Made by a program: the position numbers and the translations under genes
The notes under the pieces: model-generated
What the model was told of the DNA's origin: nothing
Databases searched by the model: none
Seen by the model: only the letters and a program-made list of their open reading frames with translations
From: Mobula hypostoma
Lineage: Eukaryota
Reading direction: 5' to 3'
NCBI RefSeq assembly: GCF_963921235.1
Contig: NC_086097.1
Span: forward strand, 136,526,001-136,590,000
DNA length: 64,000 nucleotides
Shown here: piece by piece, positions 11,093 through 59,924 of the stretch
Layout of the letters: the number at the start of each line of letters is the position of its first letter
Numbering within the stretch: position 1 is the stretch's first letter

Positions 11093-11365
11093 ATGGCGTT
11101 GACGGCCAGGGTGCAAAGGAGCGGGCTGCTGGACGTCCTGGTGCGGGACACCTGGCACCGAGTGTTGGCCTCTCTGTACGACGAGACCCTGGTGTTGAGC
11201 TGTGACCAGGCGGCCGATCCCGCGGCATGGAACGGTGTGGCCAACGGGAACCAAGACGGCTCGCCGAGCCCGTGCGCAAGCCCTAGGGCCGGAGGGGTCC
11301 GCAATGCCTTCTCCGAGCTGCCCGAAAGTGTCAGCAACAGGAAGAGGAGCGTCAGGGTCATCAAG
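11093..11365 (+). CDS. SNTB1: Beta-1-like syntrophin, first coding exon (N-terminal half of split PH1 domain, start of PDZ)
   Basis: ATG in strong context (GGGATGG). Translation MALTARVQRSGLLDVLVRDTWHRVLASL...GVRNAFSELPESVSNRKRSVRVIK matches recalled SNTB1 motifs QRSGLLEVLVRDRWHKV and GVRTAF..PESISNQKRGVKVLK. Donor AAG|GTACTG, phase 0. Syntrophin family identity is firm; exact orthology is less so. Confidence 0.88.
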
Positions 11366-14412: not shown

Positions 14413-14586
14413 ACACAATGTGCTGGAGGAACTCAGCAGGCCAGGCAGCATCTGGAGGCAATGTTTTGGATTGAGACCCTTTGTCTGGACTCAAATTGAC
14501 TATTGCTTCACTTCCTCTCTCCCCCCCCCCCCCACACCCCAGCTGCTGCTCAGCTGGCTGAGTTCCTCCAGTAGATAGTTTGTGTG
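14413..14586. mobile_element. Fold-back mini-element made of two inverted Penelope pLTR ends
   Basis: Perfect 15-bp inverted repeat ctggaggaactcagc (14423-14437) / gctgagttcctccag (14557-14571). The arms resemble the pLTR at 56671 and 58052. Confidence 0.6.
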
Positions 14587-16662: not shown

Positions 16663-16882
16663 CAGGAGGTTGGGGGTTTGGGGATCAGCATCAAAGGAGG
16701 CAAAGAGAACAAGATGCCAATCCTGATCTCGAAGATCTTCAAGGGTCTAGCGGCTGACCAGACTGAGGCTCTGTATGTCGGGGATGCCATCTTGTCTGTG
16801 AACTCCGTGGACTTGCGAGATGCAACACATGACGAAGCAGTACAGGCTCTGAAGAGAGCGGGGAAAGAGGTACTCCTGGAGG
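16663..16882 (+). CDS. SNTB1: Beta-1-like syntrophin, second coding exon (PDZ domain)
   Basis: Branch-like CTAAT at 16624, pyrimidine tract, AG at 16661-16662. Translation [73 protein letters not shown]. Donor G|GTGAGT at 16883, phase 1. Joins in frame with the previous exon. Confidence 0.96.
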
Positions 16883-19800: not shown

Positions 19801-21703
19801 ACCTATGGGTTAGTGTTTGTAAGTTGTGGACGTGCCAAGTTGGTGTCCCAGCACTTCCTTGGGCTGTGATCTTTGCTGCAGATAAAGCTAATTTTTTAGA
19901 AATCTTTTAGATGCTGGAATCTAGAGCAGAAACCCAATTCTGGCAGAACTGAGTGGGTCAGTCAGCATCTGTGGAGGCAAAAGTGTAAGTCAAAGTTCTG
20001 AGGCTTTGCAGGGTCTTGACTTGTACCTTTTGGCTTGACAGATGCTGGTTGATCTGAGTTTTACCATTGTTCCTGTTTGTTCTGTTGGGTGTCTCAGGCT
20101 AACAAAAGAACCTAGAAAAGAAGCAGTTGGGGAAAGGTAATCTGATGGGAAGACCTGCATTATGGCATGTTTGCTTTTCAAGCAATTGATCCATATCATT
20201 TTTTCTGTAATGTAAAGCTGCATGTTCTGCATACATGTCAAGAAATAAGTTGGGGAAAAAATAGCATTTATTTCCTTTTCCCCCTTAAATTCTGAGTGAA
20301 TTTTATTTTGTATCTCAAATTTTTGGGTAGTGATTTGAGTTCTGAAAGGACAAATTTCAGTCACCCATTGGTCGTAAGGTGGGTTTGTTACAAAGATAGA
20401 TTTGCCCTGTGTTTTCACTGTTCCAAACTGAAAATGCTGGAGGAACTCAGCAGGTCCGGCAGCATCTAGGGAAATGAATAAACAGTCAACGTTTTGGGCA
20501 GAGATCCATCATCAACATTTTGTGTTCTAGGTTTCCAGCATCTGCAAAATCTCTTGTGTCTGTGATTCTCACAGCTGATTTGTTATCTTGGGAATCACGA
20601 TCGGCTTGGATGACTTTTTCTGATGTCGCAGCCATGACTCGATGATCCCGGACAACACTTGTGCTCCTAGTACAGTCTGCTGCTATATAAACCAATATTG
20701 TCAACACCCTGTACAAGAATTAACAGGTTCCATTGCATCATTCCAAGTATTCAGGGAGGCAAGCTGCAGTGTTGGCGTTCAGTCACTATAGAGTAATATG
20801 CATCAGCCATGCCTTAAAGTAAATTGCTTCAAATGTCCAGCAAGAAAGTATCTTGCATATTTCTCCTCCCTCCCCCCACTCCAATCTGTACGTGATTCTA
20901 CCCTTCCCCAGCCTCTACTTCCCTTTCTATCAGCCCCTTCTTCTTTCTTCCCTTAAATTAATCACCTCCACCCCTCCCCAAGGGAGTGTTTCACTTTCTC
21001 CACTCGCTGTGAAAGGAGGTTTCTCCTGGGACTCGGGATTTGAGAGCAACTGTCCATTAATTAGTTTTGGTTCTCCTCCTCTGAACCTACCCCATGAAGT
21101 TCACTCTTCGGACTCAGCACTGACTGCAGTTGCCAAAAGGATTAAGGTGAGAACTCAGTGGAAAGTGAAGAACAGAGATGAGGTTAAGAATAGATTGCCT
21201 AAGAACTACATCAGAAATGAAGAGCAATGTTCACAGCAGGCAGTTGTTGAGATCAGTACCTGATGTTGTTGGGGATGGAAACTGAATTCCAAGGCAACGT
21301 TTGTGTAAAAAAAAAAAAAAACAACAACAACACAGACTTACAGGCTTATGCACAAAGTTTCTTTTAAGTATGATAGACTGACATGCTTCCAGGAATCGCA
21401 GAGCTACTGTGACTAATCCCATTTCCTGCTTCTTGGTCTGTAGCTTGTTGGGTTGGTGTTAACCATGGCGAAGACTCGACCTGCCATCTCCCTTTCAGTC
21501 AGTTCCAGGCCACTATTATCGGGGGAAAACATTTCTATTCAATTTCCCTCTAATCCTTCCATAAATACATAAATTTTCACCTTGCCTCAAGCCAATGGAG
21601 AAGGGATGTTTAATATGTTTTTCTGGTGAGTGCTGCTTGTATGATGCTGTGTGTGTGTTTGTGATATTGCTGTCAGTAAACTTTTCTTTACATCTGTGCA
21701 TAT

Positions 21704-31389: not shown

Positions 31390-31546
31390 ACTTTATCTGA
31401 ACCAGATTTATTATCTGACTTGTATGACATGTATGCAGAAGCAGTACAGTGCAAAGATATAAAGTGACTTTATCTGAACCAGATTTATTATCTGACTTGT
31501 ATGACATGTATGCAGAAGCAGTACAGTGCAAAGATATAAAGTGACT
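31390..31546. repeat. Perfect tandem duplication, 77-bp unit x2
   Basis: actttatctgaaccagatttattatctgacttgtatgacatgtatgcagaagcagtacagtgcaaagatataaagtg starts at both 31390 and 31467. Confidence 0.95.
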
Positions 31547-41700: not shown

Positions 41701-44700
41701 AAGTGCAGGTTATCTGGTCAGTGATAGTGCCGGAGTCCAGGAACGGGGGCATCTTAATTCAGCAAGATGCCTGTGGTCTAGCTAACTGTGGCAGTTTAGT
41801 GTAGCCTCCTACAGATGTTGTTAGATGACCAACAGCTGTTAACCTGCAGATGCAGTTGCATTGTTCTCTCCTAACGATGCATGATCTGCTGATCCAGAGT
41901 CCTGATGCAGGGTTTTATTCAAAATGTTTATCATTCTTTTTCCTCCACAGATGCTGCTGGACCCGCTGAGTTCCTCCAGCAAACTGTTTGTTGCTTCAAA
42001 TTCCAGCTTCTGCTTTGTGTCTCCACGACTAGTGATGATCAGCTCAATTTCTCTCCTGCAGATGCTGCCTGACCTGAGTGTTTCCAAAATTCCGTTCTTA
42101 TTTCAGCATTCCAGCAGTGTTTTGCTTTGGGATTGGACAATGGTTGCGATCACAAGCTGGGCTTGTAACAAGCAAGCTTTGAATTGTCTCCTTGTGATGT
42201 TGGAATTGTGATCATAATGTGATAGAATTGGGGGCTGAGCTTAATAAGTGGATTCCCCTCTCCTATGGTCTGGGCTAAACTGGTGCCAACAATTTAGTGC
42301 ATACCTGAAATCTTTAATGGCTCTACCACCACACTCTAAGTTGATAAATCCACATTTTAAATAAAAGGAGCTTTGGAAATTCCTTATTTTTTGAAGTAGA
42401 TACTCAGCTAAACCAGATATCGATATGCAATTGCTAAAGAACAGATTAGCATATTAAATGATGGGAAATGGACTTTGACTCTACAATACTAATGCTTCAT
42501 AGTACAGTCTTGCCCTTGTCAAGATGCAAACAGTTCATTGAACTCAGATAAAGGTTTGATTGTAATCAAGGAGTACTTAACATTTACAATGGAGCCTTTA
42601 TTCCAATTTGTGATTCAGTGACGAGTGGTTTCTGACCAGCGCATCAAATCCCATCGTTCTTGAGGCTTCAGTTGGCCACAGCTGACGGAGACTGGTGAAT
42701 GCTCGGACATTGTCCAGGAAATCTGACCTCTGGGAGACTCCAGCACGGTGGAAGTGTGCTGCACAGGAAAAGTCTGGGTCATCTGTTGTGAATAGCAACA
42801 AGGTTGTGATACCCAGTGCTGTCTTGTGAGGTACTTTCCCCTCCCCCATCACCATTTTGGGAATGGGGAAAGTAGAACAGAGAGAACTGTGTGTGCAGTG
42901 GTAAGAAAACATGGAAACATTCTCTTCTACCTTCCCGATTCTTTACGAGTGGAGATATTTTTCATGTGCTGGAGGTTCCTGATGAACTTTGGCCCAGTAG
43001 CCGAACTTAACCATTCACAGTGCAGATTTCTCTTTAAATGGTCACGTCCCATTTAGGATTATATACATCAGCCAGATCAGATAAGGATGACAAATACTCT
43101 TCCCCGAGGGACTTCAGTGAGCCAGATGAGTTTTACAACAATCCAGTTGTTTTAAGTTTAGATGTCCTGAGACTAGCCTTTCTTTGAAGTTACAGATTTT
43201 TTTAAAAAAAACTGCAGAGATTGGAACCTGAGACATTGGCTGTGTTTCTTTTTCCATGGAGGCTGTTTGATTTCTTGAGTGATTCCAGATTTGGGTGGTT
43301 AAATAGTTCAGCTGTCTTGGTAGTAGGCACCTAACTCAGGTAGTGATTGAACTTTGTAACTGCCGACTCACTCTTCATTGCCTTTGTTCGGGGATGAACG
43401 GGTGAACAACACATAACAGCACTGTCTGCAAACGAATAAGGTGATCTGACATTTTATAAAGCAACTGGGCACCTCCTGGGTTAATCTCATTTTTTCCTCA
43501 TGAGAAAAGCTCCGTTTAGATGTCAGACTTGCTAGAGAGGCTGGCTTTGTTTTCCTTGAGCTGAAGCAGGCAATTGATAGAAGTATACAGAAATAAGATG
43601 CATAGATAAGATGGAGCAGTAAGGAGCATCTGCCCATAGCAGGGGTATCAAAGACTAAATGGGATCGGATTAGGGTGAGGAGTAGGGTGTTAGAGGAGAT
43701 CTGAGGAAGAGATTTTTTTTAAATCCGGAAGGCAGCTATAATCTGGAACGCACTGCTTGAGTGGGTGGTGGAGACAGAGGATCCTCCAGTGGGTTAAGAG
43801 ACATCTGGATAAGCACTTGAATTGTCAAGGCTGGCAAGTGGGATGGGATCTTGATGGTCAGCATGGATTTGGTGAGCTGACACAGTGATTCTAAAACAGA
43901 TGTGCCTTGTGTTTAACTCCTCTTAATCTCTTTTTAAAAATCTGTACTATCTCATTTCCAACCTTCGTGCAAGTAGACCCAGCCTTTTATTATTTGTTCA
44001 AACAAAAACCTCACGTGATGTGACCCCTTCTATTAAATCTCTCCTTAAGCTGCTGTGGGGATACAAAATGCTGATGTGATATTTCTGGTTGAGAACACAA
44101 CTGTCCCAGGGCATAACCGCCAGTGCAGGAGTCTGTGTGTTTTATTATGTTGCTCCATCCCAAAGATAATGTCATGACGGTACAGTGTCTCCCACAAAGA
44201 AGTGTGGACTTTGACCTGCAGGGCAGGTTGTGCAAGTTCAGTTGTTTCAATGGAGATACAGAGAACCTTTTGTTGATAAAATACGAAGCACTGGAACAGC
44301 AAGCAACTGAAGATAAACCTGTTAAATGACATGAGTCCGAGTATTGCTGAGCTGTTCTCCATTATCTGGTAGTAAGCAAATCTGGCTGCTCTCCTTTCAA
44401 TGGATGACCTGTTTGACATGTATGGTGAGGTGCAGATACAATGAAAAGTGTGCTGTCCCAGGATGCAAACACCAGTGCAGTAGTCTGTGTGTTTTGTTCT
44501 ATCCCAGAGGTGTCACCATAAGGGTACAGTGTCTGACACTGAAGTTATGTGGATTTGCATAGAGGTAGGGACTACCCTGACCAGATTAACCTTGGATTAG
44601 TTATAGGGAATGGAGATGTGTTTGAAAGAGCTTGTCATTGAGATCAGTAAGTATTAGTTTGGTCATTGGACTAGTGAGCCAGGGGCCTGTATTAATGCTA

Positions 44701-50725: not shown

Positions 50726-51509
50726 TTGTCCCTGACCCACTTGCATCTAAGGGCCTTGTTGATGGGAATAGTACTCTCAGGTCCATACTACTCAGTACCA
50801 GAGTTTATCATTACTGCAGGAACTTCACATGATTTTATTTCTTAATGGTTAGTGGACATCGTGTGGGAAGAAAGGGTTTGTAGAAATGTACAGTATAAAG
50901 CACAACCCCAGTTCCACCCAGTAACCTTGCCAAATTACAGAGGACTTGCATATACGAACTTTTAACTACAGTTGGCATTAGCTCCTCAAGGAATATCCAA
51001 GTAACATGAATTCCTTCAGTTGCACTGCTATTTTGATCTGCATAACCCCTCTCCATCATCCTCCATCTATCAATTCCCATCCCCGAGTGTGATTTCTGCT
51101 TCCCTTGAATCTCTCCATTTGCACTACCTTGTAGGAATAAGCTCTTCCTCCCCCTCACTCCCTGGGACAACTTTTCTCCTCTTTCCCCACGGAATATTTA
51201 GGACCTCTAATACCAGCTTTCCTCACAACAGGAAACATCCATTGCCAAGCAACGCACACAAGATGCTGGAGGAACTCAGCAGGCCGGACAGCATACGTTG
51301 GGGGCGGGGGGGGAAGTACAGTTGATGTTTCAGGCTGAGACCCTTTGGAAGGACCTGCAGATTTTCTCTTGTTTATGATGTCCATTGCCATGATTTTCCT
51401 TTACATCACCACTCTTTCTACCTTTTCCTTAATGGCATTGCATTTCCATGGATAGCACTGCTGTTGTGGTATCCTCCCTGTAGGTCTCCAGTAGGTTCAT
51501 TTTTTATTT

Positions 51510-56545: not shown

Positions 56546-56705
56546 TGTATATGTCTGTGATGGCATTTACTCCAACAAGACAGCCTAGTCAAATCCATTT
56601 GATATTTAGTGAGTTCAACAAGCTTGGGGTTACCACTGACCAGAAACTCAACTGGACCAGCCCTGTAAATGCAGCAGGCCAGGCAGCATCTCTAGGAAGA
56701 GGTGC

Positions 56706-56741
56706 AGTCGACGTTTCAGGCCGAGACCCTTCGTCAGGACT
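56706..56741 (-). ncRNA. Minimal type I hammerhead ribozyme in the 3' pLTR
   Basis: Exact reverse complement of 58055-58090, in the same sense as the element ORF. Confidence 0.8.
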
Positions 56742-58054
56742 AACTGAAGGAAGAGCGAGTAAGGGATTTGAAAGTTGGAGGGAGAGGGGGAGATCCAAAA
56801 TGATAGGAGAAGACAGGAGGGGGAGGGATGGAGCCAAGAGCTGGACAGGTGATTGGCAAAAGGGATACGAGAGGATCATGGGACAGGAGGTCTGGGAAGA
56901 AAGATGGGGGGGACCCAGAGGATGGGCAAGGGGTATATTCAGAGGGACAGAGGGAGAAAAGGAGAGTGAGAGAAAGAATGTGTGTATAAAAATAAGTAAC
57001 AGATGGGGTACGAGGGGGAGGTGGGGCATTAGCGGAAGTTAGAGAAGTCGATGTTCATGCCATCAGATTGGAGGCTACCCAGACGGAATATAAGGTGTTG
57101 TTCCTCCAACCTGAGTGTGGCTTCATCTTTACAGTAGAGGAGGCCGTGGATAGACATGTCAGAATGGGAATGGGATGTGGAATTAAAATGTGTGGCCACT
57201 GGGAGATCCTGCTTTCTCTGGCAGACAGAGCGTAGGTGTTCAGCAAAGCGGTCTCCCAGTCTGCGTCGGGTCTCGCCAATATATAAAAGGCCACATCGGG
57301 AGCACTGGACGCAGTATATCACCCCAGCCGACTCACAGGTGAAGTGTTGCCTCACCTGGAAGGACTGTTTGGGGCCCTGAATGGTGGTAAGGGAGGAAGT
57401 GTAAGGGCATGTGTAGCACTTGTTCCGCTTACAAGGATAAATGCCAGGAGGGAGATCAGTGGGGAGGGATGGGGGGGACAAATGGACAAGGGAGTTGCAT
57501 AGGGAGCGATCCCTGCGGAATGCGGGGGGGGGGAGGGAAAGATGTGCTTAGTGGTGGGATCCCGTTGGAGGTGGCGGAAGTTACAGAGAATAATATGTTG
57601 GACCCGGAGGCTGGTGGGGTGGTAGGTGACGACCAGGGGAACCCTATTCCTAGTGGGGTGGCAGGAAGATGGAGTGAGAGCAGATGTACATGAAATGGGG
57701 GAGATGCGTTTAAGAGCAGAGTTGATAGTGGAGGAAGGGAAGCCCCTTTCTTTAAAAAAGGAAGACATCTCCCTCGTCCTAGAATGAAAAGCCTCATCCT
57801 GAGAGCAGATGCGGCGGAGACGGAGGAATTGCGAGAAGGGGATGGCGTTTTTGCAAGAGACAGGGTGAGAAGAGGAATAGTCCAGATAGCTGTGAGAGTC
57901 AGTAGGCTTATAGTAGACATCAGTGGATAAGCTGTCTCTGGAGACAGAAACAGAAAGATCTAGAAAGGGGAGGGAGGTGTCAGAAATGGACCAGGTAAAC
58001 TTGAGGGCAGGGTGAAAGTTGGAGGCAAAGTTAATAAAGTCAACGAGCTCTGTT

Positions 58055-58090
58055 AGTCCTGACGAAGGGTCTCGGCCTGAAACGTCGACT
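58055..58090 (+). ncRNA. Minimal type I hammerhead ribozyme in the inverted pLTR
   Basis: AGTC (stem I) - CTGACGA (core) - AGG gtctcgg CCT (stem II) - GAA - ACGT (palindromic, loopless stem III) - C, cleavage site - GACT (stem I). All core nucleotides are present. Confidence 0.8.
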
Positions 58091-58384
58091 GCACCTCTTC
58101 CTAGAGATGCTGCCTGGCCTGCTGCGTTCACCAGCAACTTTTATGTGTGTTGCTTGAATTTCCAGCATCTGCAGAATTCCTGTCCTCAGCCCTGTAAATA
58201 CTGTGACTAACATAGAAGAGTATCCTGCTGTGAGTAATTCACCTTCTGAGACCCCAAGGCCTTTCCATCATCTTGAACACACATGTTAAAGTGTGATGGA
58301 CCACCTTCAATTCACTTGAATGAATGTAGCTCAAAACGCTCTTTTCAAGCTCAACACCTTTCAGGACAAAGCAGCCTGTCTCCA

Positions 58385-59680
58385 TTCCTCCTGTAATCCA
58401 TGACCAGCTCCTTTGTTTTTGCGACATTGAGGGAGAGGTTGTTTTCTTGACACCACTGTGTCAGAGCGATGACTTCTTCCCTGTAGGCCACCTCGTTCGA
58501 GGTTAGGCCAATCAATGTTGTGTTGTCGGCAAATTTAATTAGCAGATTAGAGCTGTGGGTGGCAACACAGTTATGGGTATACAAGGAGTAAAGGAGTGGA
58601 CTTGGGAGCCCCTCAGAGCTGCATACTATATTGAGAGAGGGGTGGAGGTGAGGGAGCCCACTCTTACAACCTGCCAGTGATCTGGCAGGAAGTCCAGGAT
58701 CCAGCTGCACAAGGTAGGGTCAAGGCCGAGGTCTCTGAGCTTTTTGTCAAGCCTGGATGGAACTATGGTGTTGAATGCTGAACTGTAGTCAATGAACAGC
58801 GTTCTCACATAAGCATCCTCCTTCTCCATATGTGTAAGGAGGGTTTGTAGAGCAGTGGCTATTGCGTCGTCTGTTGATTGGTTGTGTTGGTAGGCGAATT
58901 GTAAGGGGTCCAGTTTGGGTGGTAGCAAGCGACTGTCCACAGGTTGGAAACATCTGCGTACCTCAGCCTCAGAGATGACCAGGTTGCAGGTTGTAGTGGT
59001 GGCTTTCCTCGGAGGCTCAGAGTAAGTGCAAAAGCGATTGAGCTCAGCTGGGAGAGAGGCCGCGATGTTGGCGGCACCACAACTTTTGGCTTTGAAGTCT
59101 GCGATGGTATGCAACCCTTGTCACAAGTCATGTGTGCTACTCAGTGAATACTAACTCAATCTTGTCCCTGTATTGTTGTTTCGTAGCCCTGATAGCTTTG
59201 TGCAGATCGTAGCTGCTTTTCTTGAGCTCCAGCTGATTGCCGGCAGTGTAAGCTCTGTCGTGCAGTAAGTGCCGCTCACATGGAACTATTGATCCAGGGT
59301 TTCTGGTTTGGGAAGACTCTGACCATCTTCTGGGGGACAACATCATCAATGCACATCTGGATGACTCCACGTGACCCATCCATGAACTCGGAGACATCCT
59401 CATCACGGAACACATTGCAGTCGATGTCACTGAAGCAGTCCTGCAGCATGGGGGCCAATTGTTCGGACCAACAGTGGACTGCTTTAACAATGGCCGCCTC
59501 TTGTTTCAACTCCTGCTTGCACATCGACAAAAGCAGGATCGAAGCGTGATCTGATTTTCCAAAAGCTGGGCAAAGGAGAGCTTTGTAAGCGTTGCGGAAG
59601 GGAGTGTAACAGTGGTCAAGTATCTTACCTCCACGAGTGCTCGTGGGTGTATTAGTGAACGCTGTATGAACGTGATCAGG
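58385..59680 (-). mobile_element. Rex1/Babar-type LINE, endonuclease to RT with internal deletions
   Basis: Minus ORFs TRGGKILDHCY..FGKSDH, LDPLQFAY..STDDAI..YVRTLFIDYSSAFNTI and [20 protein letters not shown]. Confidence 0.9.
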
Positions 59681-59924
59681 CATTTGTGGTATAAATTTTA
59701 AAAAAACATGAGAATTGTGATTTCCTAGGCAAGACAGCATGTTGTCCTTTAGTTCTGAAGGCCTAGCGTTAAGCATGCTGGACAAGGGGAGCAACTATTT
59801 GGCATGCTCAGGCTCTCAGTCCAAAAGTCTGTCATCTCCAAGTTTTCTGAGTGACATACTTAATCACATGCCAGCAGAACTTCTAGTATTCACAACTCTG
59901 AACTTCTTAAGGAGTTCCACTGCA

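Follow-up and report, generated by a model that had tools for sequence, protein, structure and literature searches.

The window, that is, the whole stretch of 64,000 nucleotides that was analysed, contains the first part of a beta-1-syntrophin-like gene (SNTB1) on the plus strand, and a truncated Penelope-like element sits in the second intron of this gene. The identity and strand of the host gene are confirmed. Coding exon 1 (11093 to 11365, plus strand) has a GT donor and no database match by itself; going by its likeness, it is presumably the syntrophin N-terminus. Exon 2 (16663 to 16882, plus strand) encodes a PDZ domain, as judged by domain and structure matches, with beta-1-syntrophin as its best solved match, and a protein search with this exon returned multi-PDZ proteins only. 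A PH_17 search placed another host exon about 109 kb from the window start, and exons 3 to 8, located by family search and short motifs, lie past the window end on the plus strand in the 200 kb downstream, with splice sites that fit at exon 3. Intron 2 extends from 16883 to 105694 (88.8 kb; coordinates continued past the window), therefore the hammerhead motif at 58054 to 58091 is intronic and in the sense strand, with the donor at a distance of 41 kb and the acceptor at 48 kb. The first-pass annotation had assigned the motif to a syntrophin intron, in sense orientation, and the PDZ exon upstream and exons 3 to 8 downstream on the same strand bear this out. An end of the gene before the motif is excluded by the downstream exons and by the extent of intron 2.

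A single Penelope-like insertion, 5'-truncated and 1.5 kb long, occupies 56671 to 58186. Sequence comparison shows that it is bounded by a 13-bp target-site duplication (56658 to 56670 and 58187 to 58199, plus strand). The element's own 3' pLTR (56671 to 56744, minus strand) is the antisense arm, which comes first on the host transcript. It is followed by the 3' untranslated region (56745 to 57028, minus strand), a 5'-truncated open reading frame (57029 to 58050, minus strand) and an inverted, 5'-truncated pLTR copy (58052 to 58183, plus strand) that starts 2 nt before stem I of the hammerhead and runs, tail included, to the outer 3' end of the family. The inverted repeat pairs 56665 to 56747 with 58049 to 58131, and 74 nt of it are identical (56671 to 56744 and 58052 to 58125). 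The reading frame holds the end of a reverse transcriptase (RT) region, a CX4CX2C linker and a GIY-YIG endonuclease. It starts after the RT catalytic motif, which is missing, and has one frame break near 57530. The telomerase-like RT domain of the Neptune clade is thus truncated here: the alignment begins at residue 113 of homologue P0123, past the YVDN motif at 99 of that protein, and Pfam gave no RT match for P0121 or P0123. The endonuclease matches PF01541 with E = 0.0004, just under the curated cut-off, the CCHH motif residues can be read in the translation, and relatives with 75-94% identity are annotated in Mobula and Hypanus.

The pLTR, the inverted 5'-truncated copy and the one-sided tail are all present, and an inverted 5'-truncated neighbour copy with a one-sided tail is described as typical of EN+ Penelope-like elements (PMC8557442). 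The linker, found in the 57029 to 57547 frame, fits the CX2-5CxxC pattern. It is shared by Neptune and Nematis and points to one of these two clades; Neptune is the Penelope-like clade reported in vertebrates (bioRxiv 10.64898/2026.07.22.740005). The Neptune EN+ elements described by Craig et al. 2021 (PMC8557442) and Frangieh et al. 2024 (PMC11167929) share the C-terminal GIY-YIG domain, the linker, 5' truncation, the adjoining inverted 5'-truncated copy, a pair of 3' ends separated by about 30 nt and copies made from uncleaved RNA; however, the left arm of the insertion in SNTB1 ends about 30 nt before the inner of the common 3' ends is reached. Across the 1.92 Mb of DNA that was fetched, the family's 3' ends fall in two clusters about 30 nt apart, at pLTR positions 102-107 in 39 of 129 copies and at 133-135 in 67 of 129. 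A tail with two start sites has been explained for the anole element (PMC11167929). The first-pass annotation had assigned the motif to a minimal hammerhead of a Penelope-like pLTR in an inverted copy; the pLTR arms, the GIY-YIG reading frame and the 13-bp duplication agree with that assignment.

Several other features were seen in and around the element. The 3' untranslated region ends (56745 to 56790, minus strand) in a pyrimidine tract, then CAG and TAG, immediately before stem I, an arrangement that putatively resembles a 3' splice site; the plus-strand copy has no such tract. In Drosophila virilis Penelope an intron end lies at the 5' end of helix I (PMC4209133). A broken LINE-like RT lies to the right of the insertion (58351 to 59800, minus strand), and the target site appears to be within an older LINE fragment. 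Related Penelope-like families have left older pLTR fragments, decayed and with broken cores, at 14421 to 14453, 20435 to 20514, 41949 to 42013 and 51246 to 51354, and an exact 77-bp tandem duplication occupies 31390 to 31546. In ray gene sets, pieces of Penelope-like reading frames (P0123, P0124 and P0128) are annotated as isoforms of host genes, namely divergent protein kinase domain 1C, mucin-2 and chitinase domain-containing 1; these are either read-through into a repeat or annotation errors.

A minimal hammerhead and its family

Reading the sequence confirmed that 58054 to 58091 (plus strand) is a minimal type I hammerhead with the conserved core CUGANGA...GAAA...UH of the Penelope-like class. 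The 5' arm of stem I (58054 to 58058) is followed by C3 to A9, CUGACGA (58059 to 58065), an unpaired A, a 4-bp stem II with G10.1·U11.1, G12 to A14, GAA (58079 to 58081), the palindrome ACGU (58082 to 58085), C17 of the GUC triplet (58086) and the 3' arm of stem I (58087 to 58091). The predicted cut lies between 58086 and 58087. The complete core at 58055 to 58090, the GUC ending at 58086 and a stem III reduced to the palindrome without a loop had been recognised in the first-pass annotation and are read directly in the sequence; palindromic positions 15.1-16.1 without a loop III are the pattern of the Penelope-like minimal class. For stem I the annotation had listed AGUC/GACU. These four pairs stand and are kept in 36-43 of 45 family variants, and a fifth, terminal U·G pair (58054/58091) had been missed; the resulting 5-bp stem lies within the 4-5 bp of the class. 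Neither a stable stem III nor a loop I-loop II contact region was found in the 58054 to 58091 motif.

The register of stem II has to be revised. A test on 45 distinct variants (69 motifs) from fetched DNA of the same genome showed that in the AGG/CCU register given earlier the core-proximal pair is formed in only 25 of the 45, whereas pairing is seen in 41 of the 45 if a single A is left unpaired after A9 (GGGU/RCCY, with CUCG as the loop). Going by this test, stem II most likely pairs GGGU with GCCU after the unpaired A, and it follows that the subfamily has a G·U pair in place of the conserved G10.1-C11.1. The G-C pair, which is highly conserved and not demanded by the descriptor, is absent from both the 58054 to 58091 copy and the dominant subfamily. 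An extra nucleotide that follows position 9 and precedes 10.1 is also described for Penelope minimal hammerheads (PMC4209133).

The earlier proposal of a hammerhead search gave a divided result. Rfam returned no hammerhead match to the motif at either threshold, but Rfam is uninformative for minimal hammerhead motifs. A scan of both strands of the window with a type I descriptor gave exactly two matches, at 58059 (plus) and, identical, at 56737 (minus). The second match belongs to an identical 38-mer (56705 to 56742, minus strand), antisense to the host gene. Applied to 300 shuffled windows, this descriptor gave 0.10 loose matches and 0.003 matches with a palindromic stem III per window.

The family is very large. 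The exact 36-mer occurs 32,886 times (16,386 + 16,500) in 3.48 Gb, with 0 for the controls, as expected from the earlier description of an abundant repeat family. Core and stem patterns give 65,202 motifs genome-wide (32,524 + 32,678), and the bare core with the palindrome gives 100,750 intact cores (50,186 + 50,564) against 103 (57 + 46) for the reversed control; on average, every 35 kb of genome thus holds about one such core. The sister variant with G-C at 10.1-11.1 has 4,891 exact copies (2,440 + 2,451), and the G·U subfamily outnumbers it by 6.7 to 1. CpG decay as the source of U11.1 was rejected, since U copies in which the other four CpGs are all intact exceed the C copies by 6.7 to 1. 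A C at position 7, which favours a self-inhibiting hairpin, is present in 49 of the 69 motifs.

Minimal type I hammerheads reportedly were placed in the pLTRs of metazoan Penelope-like elements by Lunse et al. in 2017. Those described by Cervera & de la Pena 2014 (PMC4209133) have the same core, a 4-5 bp stem I without loop III, the same palindromic 15.1-16.1 and the same pLTR position, and occur mostly as single or opposite-strand copies from truncated elements; the family described here differs in that its dominant subfamily has G10.1·U11.1 (32,886 copies versus 4,891 with G-C). The loads given in the same source for coelacanth (about 4,000 minimal hammerheads) and Xenopus (about 9,000) are far below the 65,000-100,000 motifs counted here, although the descriptors differ. 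For axolotl, 126,247 canonical type I hammerheads are reported (PMC7229834); with a genome of 28 Gb, the core density in the ray is several times higher, again with differing descriptors. The metazoan non-LTR retrozymes (PMC7229834; bioRxiv 10.64898/2026.07.22.740005) are also high-copy repeats with type I hammerheads and a weak stem III, and many of their copies are intronic (about 43% in Xenopus), as here. However, retrozymes are head-to-tail tandem non-coding units, while at this locus there is no tandem array and inverted arms surround a coding Penelope-like body. The two hammerheads of the insertion face opposite ways and so cannot dimerise in cis. Among the papers searched, none described this ray family in cartilaginous fish, though the supplements of PMC4209133 may list such motifs; bioRxiv 10.64898/2026.07.22.740005 mentions retrozymes in one chondrichthyan. 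The copy load of the family is what stands out, and the locus is otherwise like known Penelope hammerheads.

Origin of the copies

The 5' starts of 112 young copies bear on how the family is copied. Eighteen lie at pLTR positions 4-10, in the 5' arm of stem I (four of them at loci that had been chosen for containing the full 36-mer), and three lie at 36-40, within 3 nt of the cut site, past which the search is less sensitive. The inverted arm at 58052 begins at pLTR position 4. Genome-wide junction counts, which are not normalised, are 1,128 at position 7, 1,172 at position 13, 240 at the cut site, 109 at position 31 (8 nt before it) and 134 at position 43 (4 nt after it). Among 100 position-13 matches listed, about 82 belong to one fold-back class (hand count). 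The excess at this position is mostly that one class, therefore the raw totals do not confirm the 5'-end cluster; only the other classes do. The twofold excess at the cut site was considered as a footprint of cleaved RNA and rejected, since fold-back microhomology explains most of the inspected cases: the first 20 loci comprise 16 fold-backs with microhomology, three internal changes and one duplication, and run-off into unique flank was seen in none of the 20. A small contribution from cleaved RNA to these junctions may exist. Given 18 starts at stem I versus 3 at the cut site, and no run-off, most copies are made from uncleaved RNA. A spliced origin of the copies that start at stem I was also rejected; their upstream sequences have no common exon. 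Very short back-to-back stubs with recurring junctions were noted among the loci L201-L220, in which the inverted arm ends at pLTR 11 or 24 and the direct arm starts at the cut site, joined through 3-4 nt of microhomology that includes the stem I arms.

The insertion in SNTB1 can be pictured along the same lines. A single uncleaved element RNA would have been the template for priming from both cut ends of the target, at the 3' start points that are fixed in the family. The first cDNA would have run 1.4 kb and the other about 130 nt, stopping just past stem I, a common stopping place. The motif would be complete because the short cDNA stopped there.

The copy is young. Its arms are identical, and its body is 92-96% identical to the closest sister copies. 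A 479-nt contig of depth 6.5 from one other organism (run X19) matches the right flank from 58187, where the duplication begins, and extends 279 nt upstream; such a contig could hardly continue upstream through the repeat, so the orthologous site is likely empty in that organism. A-to-G differences in contigs of four sequencing runs are found in the two large runs of unrecorded kind as well, and were read as family variation.

Predicted folding and possible cleavage of the intronic copy

Whether the motif can act as a ribozyme depends on what it pairs with in the host transcript. In equilibrium folding of the pre-mRNA from 56600 to 58200, which ignores kinetics and proteins and leaves aside that something else could already occupy the antisense arm by the time the sense arm is made, each base of 58055 to 58091 is paired to the upstream arm with probability 1.0. 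The arm duplex is predicted at -172.8 kcal/mol; the best motif homodimer, itself not the active fold, reaches -30.3. As the arms lie back to back, transcription of either strand makes the antisense arm ahead of the sense ribozyme, here by about 20 s at the mammalian elongation rate quoted in PMC10919898. The isolated monomer is also predicted to prefer an inactive hairpin (-11.0 kcal/mol), in which GACG of the core pairs with CGUC, over the open form (-7.0 kcal/mol; open probability 0.0006). With cleavage-competent folds defined as having stem I formed and the core and palindrome free, sampling gave 2 in 1000 for 58030 to 58200, 0 in 1000 for 57900 to 58300 and 0 in 1000 when the upstream arm was included. 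The first-pass annotation had proposed a partner-dependent cleavage site in a host intron, which the analysis does not support. This proposal did not account for the antisense arm at 56671 to 56744 in the same pre-mRNA, and it fits poorly with the rarity of competent folds even without that arm and with sense copies that are not depleted in introns.

Published activities are modest. Penelope minimal hammerheads show no cleavage as monomers and low cleavage as dimers (PMC4209133). The anole hammerhead cleaves only with the element protein and is dispensable for insertion in vitro, and it left no RNA-seq ends at its site (PMC11167929). In Xenopus, one of nine dimer elements cleaved very efficiently in vitro (bioRxiv 10.64898/2026.07.22.740005), and by analogy the ray family could be active as a tandem. 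Passages in PMC544870, PMC2837043 and PMC3365414 contain neither a rate for a G·U pair at 10.1-11.1 nor results on introns that are cleaved.

A partner in cis within SNTB1 was rejected. From exon 1 to the last coding exon, no further sense copy was found in which ACGU is intact, and the two other young copies in sense, which lie about 75 kb downstream, have ACAU instead. A matched partner would thus have to come in trans, as had been proposed. The ACAU copies lie together with an inverted pair in a later SNTB1 intron (132860 to 133799, continued past the window; L027-L028). Intact same-sense hammerheads 2-6 kb apart within one intron were seen elsewhere: copies in a glypican-like span (L097-L098) at offsets 562149, 566407 and 572860 from C12:69787701, pairs at further C12 glypican-like offsets (68060/72561 and 316491/318439), and a pair at 258991/261120 in the C12:68572001 span. 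Such pairs could dimerise in cis and are better candidates for intronic cleavage than the SNTB1 copy. The best of them is at offset 572860, with no antisense partner within 8 kb.

If sense copies were cut in introns to the harm of the host, they might be expected to be lost. Strand counts were made in five plus-strand genes covering 1.73 Mb, namely SNTB1 and 1.6 Mb inside four others that include the located glypican genes. The 54 intact cores divide into 27 sense and 27 antisense. Those without a partner number 11 sense and 13 antisense (95% CI of the sense share 0.28-0.65), those with an antisense copy upstream within 8 kb 14 and 12, and those with an antisense copy only downstream 2 and 2; element bodies divide 17 to 16 by strand. 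With the even split of all cores and of the unpartnered ones, strong purging of sense copies is unlikely. Three LINEs from these spans served as controls, with their sense assumed from their RT-like frames: one is biased (43 to 69, p = 0.018) and two are not significant (2 to 8 and 46 to 53), which makes the sensitivity of the strand test modest. With 24 unpartnered copies in five genes, the test is small and would miss weak selection or harmless cleavage. Tethering of exons can let splicing tolerate the cleavage of an intron. Weak selection, or cleavage tolerated by splicing, may be present.

The motif is the inverted terminal repeat of a truncated Penelope-like insertion in intron 2 of a beta-1-syntrophin-like gene, and from these observations and the modelled folds we consider it highly probable that it is inert, because it is predicted to pair with the element's complementary repeat, which is transcribed 1.3 kb earlier. 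With the arms back to back and the antisense arm always upstream, a duplex of 74 bp would arise in the nascent RNA about 20 s after synthesis of the first arm. A molecule that escaped the duplex would be expected to fold into the hairpin that pairs the core with the palindrome, and a trans dimer would depend on four base pairs only.

The duplex itself could affect the host without catalysis, through editing, nuclear retention or altered splicing, as is known for inverted Alu pairs. The perfect complementarity over 74 nt at a distance of 1.3 kb would favour such an effect, and 26 of the 54 intact cores have an antisense partner upstream within 8 kb. The site is, however, more than 40 kb from either splice site, and the 14 to 12 split of partnered cores is expected by symmetry and is thus uninformative. 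An effect of this kind at this locus seems improbable. Slightly harder to defend is a low-rate cut of the nascent intron by a second family hammerhead in trans, probably helped by the element protein. Nuclear RNA should be rich in identical partners, given that the core is intact and that 32,886 genomic copies match it exactly, and both dimer cleavage (PMC4209133; PMC6765202) and protein assistance (PMC11167929) are reported for hammerheads of this kind. Against this stand the antisense arm upstream, a 4-bp ACGU interface of -1.7 kcal/mol set against two monomers that are each 4 kcal/mol more stable when misfolded, the G·U in place of G10.1-C11.1 and the absent strand bias. By analogy with the anole protein, which binds its RNA at the start of the reading frame (PMC11167929), the insertion would also lack the binding region. 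Domestication of the motif as a conserved regulator of syntrophin mRNA can be practically dismissed: amniote introns do hold self-cleaving motifs in the sense of long introns (RECK and other hammerheads, and the HDV-like CPEB3 ribozyme; PMC6155905, PMC10919898), and this motif too is intact, sense and intronic, but those are single-copy, conserved and canonical, whereas this one is a recent, minimal repeat copy without loop-loop contacts or a stable stem III, with identical arms, a body up to 96% identical to other copies and a likely empty orthologous site in one related organism, and it is intact because it is young.

Implications for the Penelope family in rays

The SNTB1 copy is one among tens of thousands of interchangeable transposon remnants, and as a single locus it matters little. 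The family is of wider interest. Its most amplified subfamily has lost the conserved G-C pair, a hint that such elements can spread without full catalytic speed. Detectable dimer cleavage by this family in the introns of its ray host is a long shot, and cutting at the SNTB1 site is a slimmer chance still. Should family-level cleavage be true, nascent RNA would hold enough identical palindromic partners for dimers to cut host introns, whether the partner comes in trans or from the same strand a few kb away, and back-to-back insertions such as the SNTB1 copy would be built to silence themselves. Rays would then be a system in which cleavage by Penelope hammerheads in vivo could be settled, with the partnered copies as internal negative controls. 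The 65,000-100,000 copies fall into natural classes, namely unpartnered copies, copies blocked by an antisense arm, same-strand pairs, copies with G-C versus G·U at 10.1-11.1 and copies with palindromes broken at the CpG, and these classes enable a controlled test of cleavage in vivo.
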